A stretch of DNA of 64,000 nucleotides from Mayamaea pseudoterrestris (GCA_027923505.1 BROI01000010.1:682001-746000), one strand, 5' to 3'. Positions 34,405 to 43,447 are shown, numbered from the stretch's first letter. The notes: a model not told the origin generated them from the letters alone. Program-made: numbers and translations.

Positions 34405-36069
34405 CTAGGAAAAACAGCCTGGCGGCGGAGGCGGTGGGGCAACTGCTGGAGCAGGCGCCGTTGGTTCCAAAACGCCACTTCCTGTCGCTCCACCCATGAT
34501 AAACCCATTTTCAACATCATCGTCGTCGTTGTTGCCTTCGGTTTTCAAAAAGCCTCCCACATGCTCGCTGATTTTTAAAGACGTAGCGGAGTAAGCAAAG
34601 GGTGTTACGGGATTAGTGACAGGTGCACAGAGCGAAACCGTCGACCGCGTTTGAGTCGTCAGCGAATCAAGAGAGGTTCCACCAAGGCCATTCAAACCAC
34701 CTGGTGTTAACAACTGATTGTTTGTTGATGAAGCTGCCACCAACTCGTCCAACGCCGCAAAACGATCCGTATTTTCAGATATCATGGGACTTTTTGTTTG
34801 CAAAAAGGAACTTTCATATTGTAAAGGTTGGTTAGCAGTGTGCATGGAAGTTATAAATGGATTGGCCGTGGAGCTTGTCGAAGCAGCATTTGCCGTTGTT
34901 GGCGAATGAGTTCCCAGCAACGCCGTCGTTGCCCATAATATGTCCAACCGAGCAACTGGAGCTGAAGCAGGTGCCGTCGATGATTTAGTGTCCCACAGGT
35001 TCACTCCTGTCAATGATGGTGCATCCAAGTTATTGGTTCCAGTTAATCCCAACAAGTCGGGGGAAATGGAACCGTTGCCCAGGTTTACTAAACCTAGCAA
35101 GTCTTCCTCAACTACTGGCGGTGCATCATTCAGCGACAGCAGATCCGCAACAAAAGGCAGCGATGTTGGCTCTATGTAAGCACTCGGTGCTGTTAGTCGA
35201 GGCAAAAGTAGGTCGGCGTTTGGCGCAACGTAATCGGCGAATGCATTGGAATCAGTTTCATTGTACCTGTACTTCTGCTGCGAGATCGCCGTCTGCTCGT
35301 CCGAGAAACGCTGCTTTTCCTTTTCAGCAAGCTTTAACATTTCCTCAATTCCATGCGCTGCTCCAACGTGTTTCGTGCCGTCTCGCGACATATAACCTCC
35401 GCCAAAGCCATTGTCCGCTTTGGCAAGGTTGCTCCTGGTGGTAATGGATTGCTCATGCTCCATGCGTTTCTTAAGTGCATACAATCGGACTTCATCCGTG
35501 ACAAAAGCAGCCTTTCTAGATCCAACTGGTACCAAAGATGTTGGATCCGCCTTGGAAGACCTCTCCAGTTGTAGCAAGGTAACGTCGGACAGAAGCGAGT
35601 GGACCGAAGATGCGATGTCGCGGACAGGGCCACCTCGATCAACGCCACCTCCCTTGATCTGTAAGAAAAAGCCTTCAATGCCTTGCTTCTTTTGTGCCAA
35701 TAGTATGGTATTGTAATTTAATAGTGTTTCGACATATCGTCCGAGGCAAATTGCTTGATTGACTACGATTTCGGCTCCATATATCAAAACATGTTTGGTG
35801 ACGGCCAGGGTCTTTTGAAGCGTCAGCGGAGAATAATTCATAGGCTTAGATAGAATCGATTCCAGTAACTGAATCACTAGTTCACACATATCTTCTCCAT
35901 CAGCAATGGATGCTTCATGGTATGTCCAAAAAGCGATGCGATTCAACTCGAGGCTCGAAATAATGTGTTCCGATTCGTCGAGTAGGATTCGTCGTATGCA
36001 CTGGATGACCTCCTTGCTTCCGCCAGTAACTGGCTTTGTTTGGATACCGAATATGTCTGCAATTTCCAT
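34405..36069 (-). CDS. ENTH/VHS-like domain protein with a low-complexity tail (epsin-like adaptor)
   Basis: LQKTLAVTKHVLIYGAE, VDRGGPVR; DLL motifs and NPF in the tail. Confidence 0.6.
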   Translation of the reverse strand: MEIADIFGIQTKPVTGGSKEVIQCIRRILLDESEHIISSLELNRIAFWTYHEASIADGEDMCELVIQLLESILSKPMNYSPLTLQKTLAVTKHVLIYGAEIVVNQAICLGRYVETLLNYNTILLAQKKQGIEGFFLQIKGGGVDRGGPVRDIASSVHSLLSDVTLLQLERSSKADPTSLVPVGSRKAAFVTDEVRLYALKKRMEHEQSITTRSNLAKADNGFGGGYMSRDGTKHVGAAHGIEEMLKLAEKEKQRFSDEQTAISQQKYRYNETDSNAFADYVAPNADLLLPRLTAPSAYIEPTSLPFVADLLSLNDAPPVVEEDLLGLVNLGNGSISPDLLGLTGTNNLDAPSLTGVNLWDTKSSTAPASAPVARLDILWATTALLGTHSPTTANAASTSSTANPFITSMHTANQPLQYESSFLQTKSPMISENTDRFAALDELVAASSTNNQLLTPGGLNGLGGTSLDSLTTQTRSTVSLCAPVTNPVTPFAYSATSLKISEHVGGFLKTEGNNDDDDVENGFIMGGATGSGVLEPTAPAPAVAPPPPPPGCFS

Positions 36070-36194
36070 TGTCTATTGTAGCAACGTATAATACGAGACG
36101 ATAAAGTCTTGCTTGCAAAGAATTGCGGCCCTGGTCGGTCATAACGAAGTCATCCTCACCATCGTCGTTGCGTGAACGCCACTGTGACAAAAAC

Positions 36195-36304
36195 TACACT
36201 CTATTCCATAGTGCCAAGAACTTTGATTTTCAAAGTTCTTGGCCTTACACTCTGCTAGATAGTGCCAGAAACTTTGAAATATTTCAAATTTTTGGTGGTA
36301 CACT
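36195..36304. repeat. Two ~51-bp tandem units, each containing an inverted repeat
   Basis: tacactct...atagtgcca at 36195 and 36246; perfect 14-bp arms gccaagaactttga/tcaaagttcttggc (36213-36243). Confidence 0.8.
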
Positions 36305-36480
36305 AAAAGTCACACTCATTAGGAATCGTAGCGGGACTCGTGCGTTTCGAGGAATCAGCGCGCGGCCATGGAAAAGATTGCGTCGTTTCCTTGGACGATT
36401 ACCACACCTTTAGTCTTACAGAGCTTCTTTTCGACACGAGGCGCATGGTGACAATAATCCTGTCAACTTGATACAACAGG

Positions 36481-36822
36481 ATGGCAGAAAACGCTCCGAC
36501 AGGAGCCGCCCGCTCGCAAATGATGCCGACGTTTTCTCCTTTGTCGAAGTCGAGATCCACAATTGCAGCAACAGCGATTCCTCGCTCCAGCAGCCTCAAC
36601 GCTGACATTACATCTGCATGGATCACGCGTGACGCTTCCGAACGCTTACTGCGTGACCGCGCCAAGCTGGCGGCGTCGCTGCGGGTCAAGGAATGTCCGT
36701 CTCTTGTTGGATTAAATATTTCACAAGCTGCCATGCAGCGAATTGCGCAACACAAGGCAGCGACTGTTCGATTGGCGTTTGATGTAGCTGCGGGAACTGT
36801 GCTTCGGGGAATTCAAGAGCTT

Positions 36823-36861
<39 letters not shown>

Positions 36862-39800
36862 GAAAGTAGTAGTGGAACTAGTAATGATGAAACTGTCATA
36901 CCTGCCGATCTTCCTCACATTCTACGCGACTGGAAGGCACTTGAAGCCATTCGCAACGACAGTTTGGAGCAAACGCACAATAACAAGGACAACTTTAAGC
37001 GAGATACTGCAATGACGCGTACGAAAACAGCCTCTCCTATAGCCGATATGTCGTTGGAAGAATTCACAAATGCAGCAATCGACACTGCGAGTGTAAAACC
37101 AGACACTGCGTCGTCCAAGTCGTCTACCATAATTGCAAAGACCACTGCGGCAAAACTGAGCGGCAACAAATTTTCTACAAATGGACAAGATAAAGGACCC
37201 AAATTTACTCGCAATACTCCAGCCTCATCGGCCGCCGCCCTGGACTATCGCTTCACGTCGTCACGTGCGATTCTGTGCGCCGCTGCGAATTTGCACTTTG
37301 AGGCACTCACACCTGCCTTTCACGATCGAGAATCCATGGACGTGTTAAATATTCCGCAGAATCCGGTCTCTTTGAGTCATAGCAACGCAATTGGTCCTCC
37401 TATCACGGCCCAAATTAATATGGGTGCCGTTCGCGTCGAAGCCATGACACTCGGTCAGCGGAGCATTTCGGTCATGGAGAACGCCGTTCGACGGAGTAAG
37501 CTACGCTACCAGTATCGTCGGGAAAATGCCCTTTATGATCAAAGAGATGAGGATGGGGCGTTTTTGCAGCTGGAGAATCCTTTTTCATGGAATACAGTCG
37601 ACGAGTCTGATGCAGTTTTAACGGACGAGGAGGATTTGATGATTGTTCAACATTTGCCCACAGCGTCGTCGGCGTTGACGCTGTCGTGGAACAATAAGTG
37701 TTTACCACGACTACTCTCCGTTTTAAACAAGGGAGCTGGACATGCAATTTACCATGATGTGGAATTTGCGAGTCGGCATGGACGCATTGCAGATTTGCTG
37801 CGCAGGCTCACCAACGCTGCTGACAGTTATGGTCCCCATTTGATTATTACCGTTGAACCAGAACTCATAAGCTTCGCTCAAGAATTTTGCGACGTAAATA
37901 ATCACTTGGGGTTGATAAATGCATTTGCTCCCGAGAAGATGCGCGTCTTGACCTACCAAGGCTCATCCGCTACTCGACGCAAGCTTCGAAGGTACTTTGG
38001 CACAGCCCATGGCTTGCCAACGTCTCCCTTTCACGTGATGGTGACGACATATGCGAATTTCTTAGCAGACTATTTACACTTTTGTCAGATTCCATGGGAA
38101 GTCGTGGTGCTGGACGACGGTGTGTCGTGGATGAGCGCCGCCCAAGGCGATCAGAATTCGGCCATAGGCACCATTTGGGATAATGGCATTTGGAGTTCCA
38201 ACGATCAGCACGTTGGGCTTGCGGGGACTTCAGCAACGGAATGGAACTATAAGCTGGACATTGTTCCGGAGGCGATAGTTCAAGAAGCGTGGATAGGATT
38301 GACTGCAAGGCACCGCCTCATAACGGCGGCATCGATGACAATCGACCAGCGTTCGACGGCCGACATTGTCCCTGTGACTGGCTTGCTTGGATTTGTTGCT
38401 CCTCATTTTGCTGCGACTGTGCGAGAGGAATGGGACCGAAGCCGCATTACTGCGGATGCTAAGAGCATGGACCATTTCCGCCAGCTGGTGGCAAGGTCAA
38501 CCGTCGTGCACTGCGTCGAAGGACCCTATGATAATATGCATGCGCTCGCTATGCTCGGCTTGACTGGAAAGCTTGGTATTCGTGAGTATCAATCTCTGGA
38601 TATCCCAGAGGTAATGGGTGACGACGCATTTGTGTCGGCGGGTAAAATTAGCTTTGGACGACGTTCCTCGCTCCAGTGGCTTGGGCCAATGGATCGCTCT
38701 TGGCTCCGCTACGAACTTGGAAAGTCTGAGCTGCAACACATTCTTGATGGCATGAAGATTAGCAATAAGCACGGGGCGTTCTGCGAAGAGATTACCACCG
38801 CGTCTTCCACGACATCCTCCGGCGCAACTGGACAGGTGGCTGGATCGTATGCCTACCGCTTGGCTGTGTGTTGTGGCCGACATTTTGGATCAGAGCAAGG
38901 GCTTCGCCAGCACATTAACGCATTGCATGCGCCTCCTGGGACATGGCTTTGTCGCACATGCGGATCTGATTGCATGACAAGCCAGGCGAGGACGCATCAT
39001 GAACGCTCCTGTGGTCAGCCCCCGTCGGGATCGGTTGCTGGAGAAGTAGGAACCACTGTCGGTGCCACTCCTACAGTCGGTCAAGGATCATTAGGGAAAA
39101 GCGGAGTTGGGAAGAAAAAATCAAACCGATCGTCGCAATCAACTACCACAAACGCGGAAATGGATTCAGATGGATCGTTTCGGGTGCCAAGCTATCGCGG
39201 TGTCTGGGTTAATGAAAAAGGTAAGCATTTTATAAAGATTAATGGGAAGCCGGCAACAGAAGATGATGGCGAAAATATATTGTGGTTTGACGAGTCAGAT
39301 GCTGCGGCAAGGGCGTATGACTCTCTCGCAAAGGCTCGAGCGGACGAAGAAAATAATGATCTGGAGCTAAACTTTAATGAGGATGGATCGAGGAGGACTT
39401 TTCAAGACGATATGTTGCAATCAACATCTGGTGGGCTCGGAGGAAGCGCTGTTTCAGTCGTTCCCGCATTGTCTATTATCAACATAAAGGTATGTTTAAA
39501 TGCTTCAATTTTTGCAGCTTAATTCGCATAAAAATGTCTCACGCAGCATATCAACATGAAGGATCTTCCTCCTCATGTAAAGCCGCTACTTCGCGATCCT
39601 CGCCAGACATCGAGGACAGGCGGCAACAGCAAGCGGCATGTCTACGCGTACCGGGGTGTTTGCCGCCAAGCACGTAAAGGTAAGTGAATAATTTTCGACT
39701 TTTCCTCCGTAGCATCGCATTATAGTTTGTGACAGCTGATTACCAAATATTAGGGCACGATCGATGGCAAAGTCAAATTTCGTTTATGGGCGTGAACCAT

Positions 39801-40886
39801 TATCTTGGAACTTTCGACTCGGAATGGGACGCTGCAGCCATCTACTCGTGGGCTCATCTTATATTGTATGGCGAGGAAGCGACCAAGCAGGCTCAAAAAG
39901 AAGGCGAGGAAGCAGCAGCCGCATATGAGCAAGAGCAAAGGGACATCGCCGCCGGCAAGATTCCAGAGCCATTAGCCAAACCCAAGAAGCCAAAGAAAGA
40001 ATACCAAGACGCTTCTAGCAATAAGAAGGAGAAACATGCTAAGGACAAGATTGGGGACAGTTCACCGAAGAAGCGAAAGAACAAGGAGACGAGCACAAGT
40101 AATGAAAAGAAAGCGAAAACGAACACCAAAGCATGCAAGTTGGAGAAGGAAGCGATTGGTTCGACAGTGGCAAAAGGAGTGACTAGAGCACATGTTTTGG
40201 CTCCGCGATTTGAGGACGCCTCCGACTTGGATCTCGTCGAGAATGCTTCACGAAAGCTCATTGCGGCGCGCAAATTGTCATACTGCGTGTCAGCCGAGCA
40301 CGATTTCGCATCCACCATTATTGAGACGCTCCGTCCTTGTGTTCCATTGTGCAATCTAAGTGCTTCGCCCGTGAAAGGATCCGCTTTGCTTGTGGGGCTT
40401 TCACCAAATTTGTACGACTGGGACCTGCAACATTTCGTTTCGTCGCGTTGTGAAAACTCCTCTCAGGATCTTACGACGTTGATACAGATGCTGGCAGTTG
40501 AATATGATGACGACGGTATGAACGAGAGATTTCGTAGTGCTTTACAAGGATCAGTTACCGTCCTGGGTAGAGCAAACGAGACAACAACTCATGCATACAA
40601 AAAGCTAGGTCTCGGAACCGTCGCGATGGGTGGTACAGTTGGTCGAATTGACTGTCATCTTGGAGGAGTTCCTGGCTCCTGCAGTGAAATGGCCGCGTGT
40701 ATTACCTGCTCTCGCCAAAATCCTCAGAGCAATTTCATGCTCTCCTGCCTGTCGGACGAAGACACTGTCACACTGAATGGCAAAGTTGTAAATATTGACA
40801 TGGGACAATTGCCGTTGTTTAACGAAGATGTTATTTCAATTGGTGCCCGAGTAGTGGCTATTCTTTTTGATACAAACTACGAGTAG
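36481..40886 (+). CDS. Large nuclear regulator: degenerate SNF2_N lobe, C2H2 fingers, two AP2-like domains, C-terminal FHA-like region; introns 39490-39561, 39680-39753
   Basis: Splicing yields YRGVCRQARKGHDRWQSQISFMGVNHYLGTFDSEWDAAAIY (AP2); YRGVWVNEKGK...AAARAYD (AP2); CGRHFGSEQGLRQHINALH and CRTCG...HHERSC. Confidence 0.8.
36823..36858 (+). repeat. (CAG)12 encoding a polyglutamine tract
   Basis: Uninterrupted CAG run in frame within CDS 36481. Confidence 0.95.
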
Positions 40887-40943
40887 ATAAATTTGCCATC
40901 ACCTTACTTTTTTATGATACATTATCTGTATTTTCACCTACTT

Positions 40944-43034
40944 TTAATCCTCATCAGTCTCGTCAACAGCTTCGGCGCGCTTGCTGCCATACAACTCGTC
41001 CCATGCTAGATATTGTTCCAAGTCGGAGGGAGCAACGCTTGGATTCATGGACCTCAATGACTGTCGAAAATGCTTGTAAGAAATGGCAGGAACGTCATTA
41101 CAATCTACCTCAAGTGCGCGAGCACCAAGTGCACGTATCGGACCCATAGCAGCGTCTGTGCATAGTGCCTTTAGATCTGCTCCACTGAATCCATCAGTAT
41201 CCTTTGCTAGTCGTTCAATTTCAGCTATAGTGAGCGCATGTTTATTCTTCGCCAAGAGCACCTGCAGCAATACTTTTCGATCATCTTCTTCCGGCAGGGG
41301 TATGTATAATCGTTTCGTAAAGCGTCTTCGTGCTGCTTCATCTAACTCTTGTGGACGATTTGTCGCTCCAATCATGAGCACTCGCCCTTGCCCCTCGGTT
41401 CCCGTGCCGTCCAACTGCACAAGAAATTCCGTCTTAATGCGCCGACTCGCTTCATTCTCATCAGCCTTGCGTTGCGTCAACAGACTGTCAAGCTCATCTA
41501 CAAATATGACAGAAGCCGCGTAGTAGGCTGCCACCGCAAACAAAGTACGAACTAGCTTTTCGCCCTCACCGATCCACTTGCTGGTAAGCGACGAACTTGA
41601 TATCGAAAAAAAGGTGGCTCCCGCCTCGTGCGCTATCGCCTTTCCGATTAAAGTCTTGCCCGTTCCCGGTGGACCAAACAGTAGAAGTCCATTTGGTGCA
41701 CGTCGCAGTCCAGTAAACAAATCAGGTCGCTTCATGGGCCAACACACCACTTCTTGAACTGTCTGTTTCGCGTTCGCAAGTCCGGCAATGTCGTCAAACG
41801 TTATCGTTTCGCTTCCAGCCGGATCCATAATTTCGTCGCGAATTTTATTGACCAGATCCTTCCCATAGCGTTGCAGTGGCTCTGGTAGCTCATCATCGTT
41901 GTCCGCTGCCACTGCATTGTTGTTTTCAGTGGTGGCGTAGTTGCTGGTAGTTGAATTGGCCGCCGGAGGCTGTCGAGTGCGCGCGGTGTTAATGTTCTTG
42001 CTGTTAGCGGTTTGTTCGCCAACGGCACCAATCGGCTTTTTAATGGGCGGTTGATACTTGCGTTTAAGCGAATCGCGAATGACTAGAGCGGGGGGCGGTG
42101 GCGGACTCGATGACACGCTACTGTTGTTTGGGTAATGGCTATTGGCATATGGATTGAACCCAGAATGTTGCATTGGCTGCTGAACATATAGAGACTGCTG
42201 TATTTGCGATGCTTGTGAGCTTCCATATTGCGTTTGCGGTGGCAGTTGATGCTGGCCATTACTTCCAATGCGAGCGTACTCGGCAGCTGTTTGAAACGGA
42301 TTGCCAACGTTGTCTTGCTGGATTGTCCACGACGCGGCGCCGTTTATATCGGTCCGATGGTCATGCGGCTGCTGGAGCTGCTGGGCAGGGAAATGCGCAG
42401 TAGCAGGCGCTATCGCTGTTTGCGACAGTCTTGGAGGAGGTTTCGCCGACGCGTATGAGCTATAAGATGACTGAACATCATAACCTGCAGTTTGCTCATT
42501 GTTGAAATGTGTTCTCGATGTAGCGGAGGATGGCACAGACGGATCATGCGTCTTTAGATTCGTTAGTGGCTCCTGCGATGGCAAGTCTATCTGTTCCTGC
42601 TCGACTTCGTTGTCGCTCATGGATTCATCATCTGATTCCCCTTCCATGATCGACTGACAAGCATGCGGATACGCTTCTAGGAAGTCGTCTATATCCGAGT
42701 CCTTGCAGCGATTAGAATCTCGAAACGATTCTTGTTGACGTAGAGGACGCAGACTATTGATAGTTGCTTCGCCTGGCAGTAGCGAAAGGAAGGCTTTTCG
42801 CTGGGTCGAGGTGGCTGAGAATCTTTCTATCCATTTACGGCCCACTTCCTTGTCTTGCCCCAACATATGAACAGTTCCCATGATGCCAGAGCGAATTAAT
42901 AGGTTTTGGCCGGCAAGACGTTGAAGTGCAGCAATATTAGTGCTTGGTGTCTTTTCGATTTCGGCACTGACGTCCCGACTTTTTCGTAGCCAGTCCTCGT
43001 ACAAAAGACCAGTAGACAATTCGTGAAGAGGCAT
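40944..43034 (-). CDS. FIGNL1: Fidgetin-like AAA ATPase
   Basis: FDDIAGL, WPMKRPDLFTGLR, GPPGTGKT, SSLTSKWIGEGEK, RRIKTEFLVQLDG, ELDEAARRRF. Confidence 0.88.
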   Translation of the reverse strand: MPLHELSTGLLYEDWLRKSRDVSAEIEKTPSTNIAALQRLAGQNLLIRSGIMGTVHMLGQDKEVGRKWIERFSATSTQRKAFLSLLPGEATINSLRPLRQQESFRDSNRCKDSDIDDFLEAYPHACQSIMEGESDDESMSDNEVEQEQIDLPSQEPLTNLKTHDPSVPSSATSRTHFNNEQTAGYDVQSSYSSYASAKPPPRLSQTAIAPATAHFPAQQLQQPHDHRTDINGAASWTIQQDNVGNPFQTAAEYARIGSNGQHQLPPQTQYGSSQASQIQQSLYVQQPMQHSGFNPYANSHYPNNSSVSSSPPPPPALVIRDSLKRKYQPPIKKPIGAVGEQTANSKNINTARTRQPPAANSTTSNYATTENNNAVAADNDDELPEPLQRYGKDLVNKIRDEIMDPAGSETITFDDIAGLANAKQTVQEVVCWPMKRPDLFTGLRRAPNGLLLFGPPGTGKTLIGKAIAHEAGATFFSISSSSLTSKWIGEGEKLVRTLFAVAAYYAASVIFVDELDSLLTQRKADENEASRRIKTEFLVQLDGTGTEGQGRVLMIGATNRPQELDEAARRRFTKRLYIPLPEEDDRKVLLQVLLAKNKHALTIAEIERLAKDTDGFSGADLKALCTDAAMGPIRALGARALEVDCNDVPAISYKHFRQSLRSMNPSVAPSDLEQYLAWDELYGSKRAEAVDETDED

Positions 43035-43447
43035 TGTAATTTTTCGAGCAAATGAAGTGTTTTTTTATTACATGCAAGTGGCGAACGCAACAGCGCCGTG
43101 CGGGTCAAAGGCCATGGTCGAGAAATGCGACGGTTTCCTTTCACGCGTCTCTCTATATAAGCCATTTGAAGTTGTATTCATATTTGTTAAGCCTAAAGAT
43201 TGACAGATTTTATTTTATATTGCCTGTTTACAACGCAGCTAATGAAATCATAAGGCTATTGTACCTCTTGTATTGCCTTGCGAATTGTTTATCTTGTTTT
43301 CCTACTTATGCCTAAAAGTTTCGATGCCTCGTCACTTTCGACGACCTTTTCAACGTTCACGCCATCACATCATCTCTGTGAGCTGTGAGCAATACTCGTA
43401 TACTCGTATATTAGCAATCATCAGACCGGTAGTCTGATCGTTGCTGG

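Follow-up and report, generated by a model that had tools for sequence, protein, structure and literature searches.

An expressed diatom gene joining an INO80-type Snf2 lobe, apparently without its motor, to putative zinc-finger and AP2-like domains and an FHA fold

Related systems and the gene at this locus

The described systems closest to this locus are INO80, a chromatin-remodelling ATPase of the Swr1-like group of the Snf2 family, the plant AP2/ERF proteins ERF096, WRI1 and TEM1, and the FHA domains of the kinesin-3 proteins KIF1A and KIF13B, Rad53, Ki67 and GarA. In INO80, the DBINO/HSA region holds actin and Arps. Sequence-targeted remodellers have reportedly been made in the laboratory by joining a foreign DNA-binding domain to Chd1; the protein described here is similar in concept, with a Snf2 module tied to a putative sequence-specific DNA-binding domain, whereas the hybrid remodellers are active and laboratory-built and the diatom protein is natural and apparently without the means of ATP hydrolysis. 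Gene regulation in diatoms, which are major primary producers, is poorly understood. We know of no AP2 protein with a Snf2 lobe or with an FHA domain, and none was found in the literature, nor was any description of such a lobe combined with zinc fingers, AP2 and FHA domains.

The window is a stretch of 64,000 nucleotides from Mayamaea pseudoterrestris (GCA_027923505.1 BROI01000010.1:682001-746000), and its positions 36481-40886 on the + strand hold one gene, with three exons and 1420 codons (Table 1). The first ATG, at 36481, lies inside a stop-to-stop frame of 36472-39522 with an in-frame stop immediately upstream of 36472, and the 1420 codons stay open only once two introns are removed exactly. 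Their boundaries can be read in the sequence (GT at 39490 and AG at 39560-61; GT at 39680 and AG at 39752-53), and contigs from three of four public runs, X1-X4, all from one study and with the run kind not on record, skip precisely these 72 and 74 nt. In each of X2, X3 and X4, one contig skips both introns, and single contigs (36868-40867, 36868-40858 and 38217-40904) reach from the SNF2-like part to the stop codon; X1 has the unspliced form. Judging by the intron-shaped skips and by a drop in depth outside the gene, X2-X4 are probably RNA. The intron 2 junction agrees with 18 orthologues, and an alternative acceptor at 39546 has no corresponding residues in the 18 when aligned. The locus is thus a single expressed diatom gene. 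The earlier note had proposed these two introns, and its doubt that transcripts might reveal two separate genes is answered by the transcript-like contigs, which show one; it had also tied both introns to the second AP2 domain, but only intron 2 splits that domain, and intron 1 falls before it, within a basic stretch that hardly varies.

Table 1 Features of the gene, in positions of the window
Feature	Position	Strand	Remarks
5' untranslated leader, minimum extent	36401..36480	+	transcript-like contigs begin at 36401 (X4) and 36429 (X2, X3)
Exon 1, coding part	36481..39489	+	1003 codons
N-terminal region, residues 1-394	36481..37662	+	conserved islands, no recognised domain
CAG repeat, residues 115-126	36823..36858	+	12 glutamines
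Putative INO80-derived Snf2 lobe 1, residues 395-684	37663..38532	+	predicted catalytically dead; AF2, Foldseek, VIA, profiles
Walker A equivalent, residues 429-433	37765..37779	+	both glycines, Lys and Thr replaced; Arg at the Lys position
Motif Ia equivalent, residues 451-456	37831..37848	+	well conserved; aligned to INO80 motif Ia
Walker B equivalent, residues 544-548	38110..38124	+	DD where INO80 has DE
Family-specific insertion after motif II, about residues 549-605	38125..38295	+	absent from INO80; mostly confident in the model
Motif III equivalent, residues 609-618	38305..38334	+	degenerate
Helical extension, residues 685-767	38533..38781	+	modelled confidently together with lobe 1; no RecA fold
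Zinc-finger region, residues 768-845	38782..39015	+	atypical C2H2-like finger and C-x2-C-x12-H-x3-C finger
AP2-like domain 1, residues 903-966	39187..39378	+	family profile, Atlas
Gly-rich/basic stretch, first part	39433..39489	+	leads into AP2-like domain 2; continues in exon 2 (39562-39639)
Intron 1	39490..39561	+	72 nt, GT..AG, phase 0; skipped in X2, X3, X4, not X1
Exon 2	39562..39679	+	118 nt
AP2-like domain 2, first strand	39640..39679	+	continues at 39754-39875
Intron 2	39680..39753	+	74 nt, GT..AG, phase 1, within AP2-like domain 2; skipped in X2, X3, X4
AP2-like domain 2, second part	39754..39875	+	nearly invariant across the family
Exon 3, coding part	39754..40886	+	stop 40884-40886
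Acidic, then lysine-rich linker, then weakly conserved helical region ahead of the FHA core	39876..40370	+	
FHA-fold domain (P0002 residues 206-374)	40371..40877	+	with helical insert (40404-40529)

The gene belongs to a large family. A filter-free search over 1.84 billion representatives returned 66 clusters (50% identity) at E<=1e-30, and among 61 retrieved proteins of at least 1200 aa, 43 have the same five-part architecture, the other 18 including 4 true INO80s. Orthologues from transcriptomes, tagged 'type:complete', carry the whole architecture with its parts in the same order, and the named members come from both pennate and centric diatoms. The mean identity over 18 orthologues reaches 82% in the zinc-finger region and 94% in exon 2 plus the second AP2-like domain, where the protein is conserved best. 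Together, the cluster count, these identities and the spread over both diatom groups argue for a gene under selection and not a decaying one, and because a protein present across pennate and centric diatoms keeps one segment 94% identical, it is probably important. Relatives are labelled in the databases only as 'hypothetical' or 'AP2/ERF domain-containing', the source name 'AP2/ERF domain-containing protein' standing on five members; the Snf2 and FHA parts went unnoticed because they fall below Pfam thresholds. As far as our searches show, the combination is widespread in diatoms and has so far been undescribed.

The Snf2-like lobe and the loss of the motor

The AF2 model of the lobe (pLDDT 85.6, pTM 0.87) has a RecA-like lobe 1 with the Snf2-specific helical protrusion, as Foldseek and VIA also found. 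Foldseek matched INO80 (8av6_G, E 3.8e-10), and VIA aligned 227 residues with INO80 at Z 18.7 and rmsd 3.0, all of the best 50 matches listed being Snf2-family chains (Z 16.2-18.7). An SNF2 fold, the lack of which the earlier note had named as a ground for giving up its reading, was therefore matched by both programs, and the SNF2 blocks that it had read in the sequence all lie where it placed them and are aligned to INO80 by HMMER. The structural ranking leaves the Snf2 subfamilies tied within about 2 Z. Against solved chains, the family profile scores INO80 at E 5.6e-13, EP400 and SRCAP at about 1e-6, and CHD1 and ISWI at about 5e-4, and hhalign pairs the family with six INO80s at a probability of 98.3% (E 2.2e-14). 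By sequence, INO80 is the best match for the block bounded by the Walker A position and motif II, in which the segment linking motifs Ib and II is also INO80-style, and it is for this block only that the likeness to INO80 is statistically supported. The filter-free search returned 128 proteins at E<=1e-3, of which 21 were taken to Pfam; eleven of the Pfam-checked proteins matched the Walker A-motif II block only, and each of the six longest has DBINO, SNF2-rel_dom and Helicase_C. These profile comparisons indicate that the lobe descends specifically from INO80. For Pfam itself, the lobe is hardly visible, as SNF2-rel_dom reaches 12.7 bits in the window, below the gathering score of 24.9 (E 0.07), and passes in 2 of 14 orthologues (26.2 and 26.6 bits) with 1 more below threshold. 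Nevertheless, none of the full-length family members retrieved lacks the lobe, which has a mean identity of about 49% over 18 orthologues, above that of the flanking linkers, and 25 invariant columns in a 406-residue lobe piece across 55 sequences.

The differences from INO80 concern the parts that make a motor. The Walker A stretch falls on the INO80 GKT loop in the HMMER and MAFFT alignments, and GKT is kept in none of the 55 family rows; instead, all 55 have Arg, in the pattern aromatic-x-x-Arg-His/Tyr/Phe. By comparison, the G-x-H-L of motif Ia is present in 55/55 rows. At Walker B, every row has the first Asp. It is followed by Glu in 10 of 55 rows and by a second Asp in the window, where DDGV aligns with INO80 DEAQ, in agreement with the earlier reading of DDGV as a replacement of DExH. 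About 55 additional residues follow motif II. Taken alone, the motif III block has no significant sequence match (E 0.13 vs 0.16 for the reversed control); in the model, it falls within the range that the structural alignments cover. Beyond the lobe, past model residue 283, there are only helices (block-mean pLDDT 82-97), so that lobe 2 is absent from the lobe model, which excludes the N-terminal 394 residues, and Pfam finds nothing in this helical extension. Helicase_C was found in none of 14 orthologues and in no piece of the window, and an INO80 lobe 2 profile tested in isolation gave E 0.094 over 7 columns vs 0.25 for its reversed control, in keeping with the earlier reading that no HELICc lobe is present. 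DBINO/HSA is likewise undetectable, the N-terminal region giving E 0.53 and 0.78 in hhalign against the DBINO region of six INO80s and the reversed controls 0.48 and 0.16, and in place of further INO80 parts the zinc-finger, AP2-like and FHA modules follow the lobe.

Because the P-loop is lost and no lobe 2 was found, the protein would be unable to hydrolyse ATP or translocate on DNA, and the lobe, which keeps the Snf2 fold and the region from motif Ia to Ic, is predicted to be catalytically dead. This supports the description of the protein as a pseudo-remodeler. Given DE in 10 of 55 Walker B sites and the Arg at the Walker A Lys position, residual nucleotide binding is formally conceivable.

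Putative zinc fingers, AP2-like domains and the FHA-fold tail

The region after the helical extension had been described as C2H2 fingers, and a putative finger region lies there, but one finger is only half-classical, the other is of the C-x2-C-x12-H-x3-C type, and both are below Pfam thresholds: zf-C2H2_4 reaches 14.4 bits in the window vs the required 27 (E 0.066), and zf-C2H2_6 reaches 16.4-17 bits vs 25 in 2 of 14 orthologues (E 0.006-0.009). In most orthologues, finger 1 has no first Cys at the customary distance, the ligands of finger 2 are nearly invariant, and the Cys/His columns of the fingers as a whole are invariant or nearly so. The family profile matches ZNF423 here at E 1.3e-3, and pLDDT is low for this region in the model.

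At both AP2-like domains, the family profile matches AP2 domains of plant AP2/ERF proteins with solved structures. The match of the first to ERF096 (5wx9) has an E of 1.1e-3, and that of the second has E values of 0.033 for WRI1 and 0.37 for TEM1, with the second domain of orthologue P0025 alone giving WRI1 at E 0.074; phmmer with domain 1 alone found no AP2 in the PDB. In the Atlas, the AP2 (PF00847) set takes 24 of 30 matches for domain 1 (top score 0.92) and 23 of 30 for domain 2 (top score 0.91), although by the tool's own figures scores of 0.91-0.92 are expected by chance in 4 to 10 cases out of 100, and the nearest clusters are AP2 clusters, commonly from diatoms. The two domains differ from known AP2/ERF domains in lying below Pfam AP2 detection (no match in the window, in 14 orthologues or in isolated window segments at E<=10) and in being unlike each other, as they have no mutual profile similarity past the first strand (probability 2.3%). 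The presence of two very different AP2-like domains is thus moderately supported by these profile matches. The columns of the Gly-rich/basic stretch that leads into the second are nearly invariant.

The FHA-like tail suggested earlier was confirmed as a fold. The AF2 model of the tail (pLDDT 82) has FHA domains as its top Foldseek matches (KIF1A, E 6.8e-5), and VIA, which is independent of Foldseek, gave Z 14.2 to 8.7 over the best 50 matches listed, 32 of whose titles name FHA. The beta-sandwich is shared with the FHA domains of KIF1A, KIF13B, Rad53, Ki67 and GarA at Z 12-14, and the best compact VIA matches align about 100 residues with rmsd 2.1-2.6. We conclude from the model that the C-terminal domain adopts a true FHA fold, although Pfam FHA is blind to it (no match on the isolated segment at E<=10 or in 14 orthologues at E<=0.1) and a helical insert of about 40 residues separates the first strands. 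In the 34 rows with residues at the pocket, with equivalences assigned by motif pattern (Gly-Arg, Ser-x-x-His, Asn-Gly) and not by structural superposition, Gly (34/34), Ser (29/34) and Asn-Gly (32/34) stand at the usual positions, whereas Arg is kept in 12 only and His in none, being replaced by Ala in 33 and by Ser in 1. The phosphothreonine pocket therefore appears to be degenerate in the family. The domain in the window keeps Gly-Arg, Ser and Asn-Gly, with Ala for His, and so may still read phosphothreonine in this species.

Possible roles of the protein

We regard it as probable that the gene encodes a nuclear DNA-binding scaffold of 1420 residues for targeting or anchoring, with a non-catalytic INO80-type lobe and an FHA fold. 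We infer sequence-specific DNA binding and docking from the domains: the AP2-like and zinc-finger parts would bring the protein to specific sites, and the dead lobe and the FHA fold would offer docking surfaces for DNA, nucleosomes or partner proteins, which would make the protein a targeting or anchoring scaffold and no remodeller. A working remodeller, with lobe 2 supplied in trans or missed by our tests, is highly improbable. A greedy full-length hhalign did put INO80 motifs V-VI between the two AP2-like domains with locally high posteriors, and 10 of 55 members have DE at Walker B; however, the motif V-VI likeness vanishes in isolation, where the 7 aligned columns fall in another register, no orthologue has Helicase_C, and both Walker A glycines, the Lys and the Thr are missing in all 55 rows. 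Still harder to believe is that the gene is an artefact, whether a pseudogene in decay or two adjoining genes mistaken for one. Among the database relatives, many are shorter, ending after the zinc fingers or after the first AP2-like domain, but these come mostly from metagenome contigs, and we take them to be models cut at introns. The artefact is opposed by single spliced contigs over 36868-40867 in three runs, by the frame that opens only on exact intron removal, by the full-length transcriptome orthologues, and by the strong conservation in segment identities and cluster number.

The remaining alternatives differ in what they make of the lobe. The protein may be a decoy or adaptor for the INO80 complex, in which the dead lobe keeps the subunit-binding surfaces of INO80 lobe 1 and the AP2-like domains and zinc fingers bring subunits or whole INO80 complexes to sites or titrate them away; we consider this rather unlikely. 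In its favour, the lobe is specifically INO80-like and not generically Snf2, is more conserved than its flanking linkers and has a conserved family-specific insertion, but DBINO/HSA is no more detectable than in reversed controls, without a Pfam match, and the INO80 sequence support is restricted to Walker A-motif II. It is equally doubtful that the dead lobe is an inert structural leftover in an otherwise ordinary AP2 transcription factor, whose regulation would run through an FHA domain still able to read phosphothreonine. The canonical fold and the pocket residues kept in the window would fit such a factor, as would the fact that the second AP2-like segment is the most conserved, whereas Arg in 12 of 34 family rows and His in none speak against it, and neither the retention of the lobe in every full-length member nor its invariant columns would be expected of a leftover.

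A more specific and tentative idea, to which we give a small chance, is that of a natural 'half-motor' in diatoms: an INO80 was duplicated, lost its ATP site and second lobe, and kept lobe 1 as a surface for binding nucleosomes or INO80 subunits, permanently wired to sequence-specific AP2/zinc-finger readers. If this were true, the protein would, without spending ATP, label or clamp certain nucleosomes or recruit INO80 subunits to selected sites. Chromatin state would then be coupled to DNA sequence in a new way, and the protein would be the first natural Snf2 pseudoenzyme of a single lobe to have a defined role. In any case, the family is a natural experiment for chromatin biology on what a Snf2 lobe 1 does without ATP and without lobe 2, and the INO80 origin makes tests concrete, namely which INO80 partners or nucleosome surfaces the lobe still binds.

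The segments between and ahead of the domains are less conserved. Pfam found nothing at E<=10 in residues 1-394, which have conserved motifs across the 18 orthologues at mean identities of 27% (residues 1-254) and 41% (residues 255-394), and the linker and helical region ahead of the FHA core has a mean identity of 35-45%, with low pLDDT over residues 1-54 of the tail model. Around the CAG repeat, at 36813-36867, the assembled contigs are interrupted.

Gene model and splicing

In an ORF scan of the window, three long forward-strand frames were found between 36472 and 40886, with 36481 as the first ATG downstream of an in-frame stop, and exact removal of the two GT/AG-bounded stretches listed in the table joined them into a single open frame. 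Both splice junctions agree with an alignment of 18 diatom orthologues, seven of which are transcriptome ORFs tagged "type:complete". A second in-frame acceptor at 39546 would lengthen the protein by five residues, and it was rejected because it has no matching residues in the 18 orthologues and is unused in spliced contigs.

Four public sequencing runs (X1-X4), all from one study and with no recorded run type, cover the stretch. We found that one contig each in X2, X3 and X4 lacks two stretches, of 72 nt and 74 nt, that coincide exactly with the predicted introns and have GT..AG ends; these contigs start at 36868 or 38217 and end at 40858-40904. X2-X4 are inferred to be RNA because of these intron-shaped skips and the drop in depth outside the gene, whereas X1 carries the unspliced form in a contig of 11,881 nt. 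The sole contig break falls at the CAG repeat (36813-36867), and the start codon is covered by separate contig pieces (36401/36429-36812). Since contigs of the public runs skip both introns exactly, and single contigs span both junctions, the earlier note was right in proposing two introns and a single gene. Its further claim that the two introns together reveal the second AP2 domain holds for intron 2, which splits this domain, but not for intron 1.

Features of the gene and its surroundings (window coordinates; residues of the spliced protein)
Feature	Position	Strand	Residues	Description
Gene studied	36481-40886	+	1420 codons	three exons
CAG repeat	36823-36858	+		encodes 12 glutamines; N-terminal region, conservation poor
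Intron 1	39490-39561	+		GT/AG
Intron 2	39680-39753	+		GT/AG
Snf2-like lobe			395-684
Zinc fingers			768-845
AP2-1 (first AP2-like domain)			903-966
Modelled tail, with FHA fold			last 246
Divergent upstream ORF	34405-36072	-	555 aa	C-terminal half low-complexity, Pro/Ala/Ser-rich
Convergent neighbour	40944-43064	-	706 aa	AAA ATPase: AAA (E 1.3e-38), AAA_lid_3, Vps4_C
Intergenic piece in X1	36153-36336			small rearranged/inverted piece, loose end near 36212-36243

The glutamine run is absent from the aligned orthologues, and the contigs of all four runs break there.

The Snf2-like lobe and its likeness to INO80

The Pfam match of SNF2-rel_dom to the window is sub-threshold (E 0.07, 12.7 bits vs a cutoff of 24.9), and the cutoff is passed by two of 14 orthologues. 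When a profile of 55 family members was searched against all solved chains, INO80 was the top match (E 5.6e-13), followed by EP400/SRCAP (about 1e-6) and CHD1/ISWI (about 5e-4); the aligned block extends from Walker A, or its equivalent position, as far as motif II. When 1.84 billion representatives were searched by phmmer without filters, 128 proteins reached E<=1e-3 and 66 of these E<=1e-30, and past a gap the list contains proteins that match solely this block. Pfam was run on 21 of the 128, eleven of which were block-only; the six longest of these eleven each carry DBINO, SNF2-rel_dom and Helicase_C, and are therefore true INO80s. The family aligned with those six at a probability of 98.3% and E 2.2e-14 (hhalign). 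Taken together, these comparisons point to INO80 as the ancestor of the lobe.

AF2 modelled residues 395-800 with good confidence (pLDDT 85.6, pTM 0.87), and the modelled lobe matched INO80 both in Foldseek (E 3.8e-10) and in a separate structure search, VIA (Z 18.7, rmsd 3.0, 227 residues), in which the remaining Snf2 subfamilies lay within about 2 Z of INO80. Given these structural matches to Snf2 motors, the predicted fold is that of Snf2 lobe 1. From motif III to the protrusion, sequence alone gave E 0.13 vs 0.16 for the control (hhalign), all support for that part coming from the structural match.

The five family positions opposite the G-L-G-K-T of INO80 are, in order, aromatic, variable, variable, Arg, and one of His, Tyr or Phe; the Walker A glycines, Lys and Thr are retained in none of the 55 family rows. 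At Walker B, the first Asp is present in all 55 rows and the catalytic Glu in ten, the window having Asp at that place; after motif II the family has an extra stretch of about 55 residues of its own. Pfam found Helicase_C in none of the 14 orthologues and in no piece of the window, and beyond lobe 1 the AF2 lobe model consists of helices only. The earlier note had described an SNF2 lobe with a dead motor and no HELICc lobe, and all three points agree with these results. A possible remnant of lobe 2 was rejected: greedy full-length hhalign had put INO80 motifs V-VI on the stretch between the AP2-like domains, and the same stretch compared in isolation with INO80 lobe 2 aligned over just 7 columns, in another register and at E 0.094 (reversed control 0.25). 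Conserved islands are present in the N-terminal 394 residues, in which DBINO and HSA were found neither by Pfam nor by hhalign (E 0.53 and 0.78; similar values for reversed controls).

Two more distant proteins of the phmmer set, P0183 (591 aa) and P0180 (840 aa), likewise have a lobe 1 that resembles INO80 and contains no GKT. P0183 retains more INO80-like motifs and is without the family's insertion after motif II. The two may represent intermediate forms, or else a sister family of pseudo-ATPases.

Zinc fingers, AP2-like domains and the FHA tail

The zinc-finger region has a mean identity of 82% to the 18 orthologues, and its Cys/His columns are invariant or nearly so. The spacing of finger 2 is classical and its last ligand is Cys; the second half of finger 1 is classical, and its first Cys at normal spacing is usually missing. 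Neither of the fingers called C2H2 in the earlier note is a regular C2H2 unit. Zinc-finger Pfam matches were sub-threshold, and the family profile matched ZNF423 at E 1.3e-3.

With family profiles, AP2-1 matched the AP2 domain of ERF096 (E 1.1e-3), and the second AP2-like domain, AP2-2, matched WRI1 (E 0.033; 0.074 with the orthologue P0025 alone) and TEM1 (E 0.37). In the ESM Atlas, 24 of 30 matches of AP2-1 and 23 of 30 of AP2-2 belonged to the AP2 set, commonly from diatoms. Pfam AP2 matched neither domain, and AP2-1 alone retrieved no AP2 structure from the PDB, the sole row being an unrelated photosystem chain (E 0.14). Judged by sequence, both are probably AP2 domains. An origin of the pair by internal duplication found no support (hhalign probability 2.3%, 9 columns), the likeness being limited to the first strand. 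Exon 2 and the AP2-2 segment show a mean identity of 94% across the family, and no other part of the protein is as constrained.

The tail was modelled by AF2 with a pLDDT of 82, and its structural matches are FHA domains only. The best Foldseek match was KIF1A (E 6.8e-5), and a scan of 48,161 chains that did not rely on Foldseek gave Z from 14.2 down to 8.7 in the best 50 rows, the best compact matches covering ~100 residues at rmsd 2.1-2.6. FHA is named in 32 of the 50 listed titles, and most of the others are FHA-containing proteins. The FHA-like tail seen earlier is thus an FHA fold, into which some 40 residues of helical structure are inserted after the first strand. According to the motif pattern, the window's FHA retains Gly-Arg, Ser and Asn-Gly and has Ala in place of His, and among 34 family rows, 12 have the pocket Arg and none has the His. 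Because of these counts, canonical phosphothreonine reading is unlikely to be the common function of the family, and such reading by the window's own FHA is possible.

Family range, proposed role and surroundings

The 224 proteins retrieved were searched with HMMs of the five modules (lobe, zinc fingers, AP2-1, AP2-2 and FHA). Of the 61 with a length of at least 1200 aa, 43 have all five modules, 11 miss FHA alone, two miss AP2-1, one misses both AP2-1 and the fingers, and the other four are INO80s. Most shorter entries, largely from metagenome contigs, end after the fingers or AP2-1 and are taken to be gene models cut at introns. Members were found in pennate diatoms (Cylindrotheca, Nitzschia, Pseudo-nitzschia, Seminavis, Epithemia, Asterionellopsis, Grammatophora) and in centric diatoms (Thalassiosira, Stephanodiscus, Skeletonema, Attheya and a CCRYP-tagged entry). 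No non-diatom stramenopile appears among the named rows, the majority of rows being nameless. One full-length member, P0238, is labelled as from a dinoflagellate (Alexandrium) transcriptome assembly, and could be diatom contamination or a genuine non-diatom occurrence.

We propose that the AP2 and zinc-finger parts would select DNA sites and that the ATP-less lobe 1 and the FHA fold would serve as binding surfaces, so that the protein may have a targeting or anchoring role with no remodelling. In Snf2 structures, motifs Ia to Ic touch the DNA backbone. Because these motifs lie within the block that is significantly similar to INO80, retained DNA or nucleosome contact would fit, and the block may equally reflect the fold core alone. 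Rival explanations are less likely: the protein may be an adaptor for INO80 subunits, or the lobe may be an inert leftover beside a working FHA fold; a motor complemented in trans and an artefact are both improbable.

In the openly readable literature, passages of PMC7596299 included, we found neither a natural Snf2 pseudoenzyme nor any account of an AP2 protein that also has a Snf2 lobe or FHA domain. The family sequences are public and annotated at most as "AP2/ERF domain-containing" or "hypothetical".

The neighbouring genes gave no functional link. The gene encoding the AAA ATPase converges on the gene studied with a stop-to-stop gap of about 58 nt. Pfam found nothing at E<=0.001 in the divergent upstream ORF, the 5' part of which is covered by transcript-like contigs. 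In X1, the summed depth is high (191) in the bin 36084-36267, and the rearranged intergenic piece is possibly a repeat.
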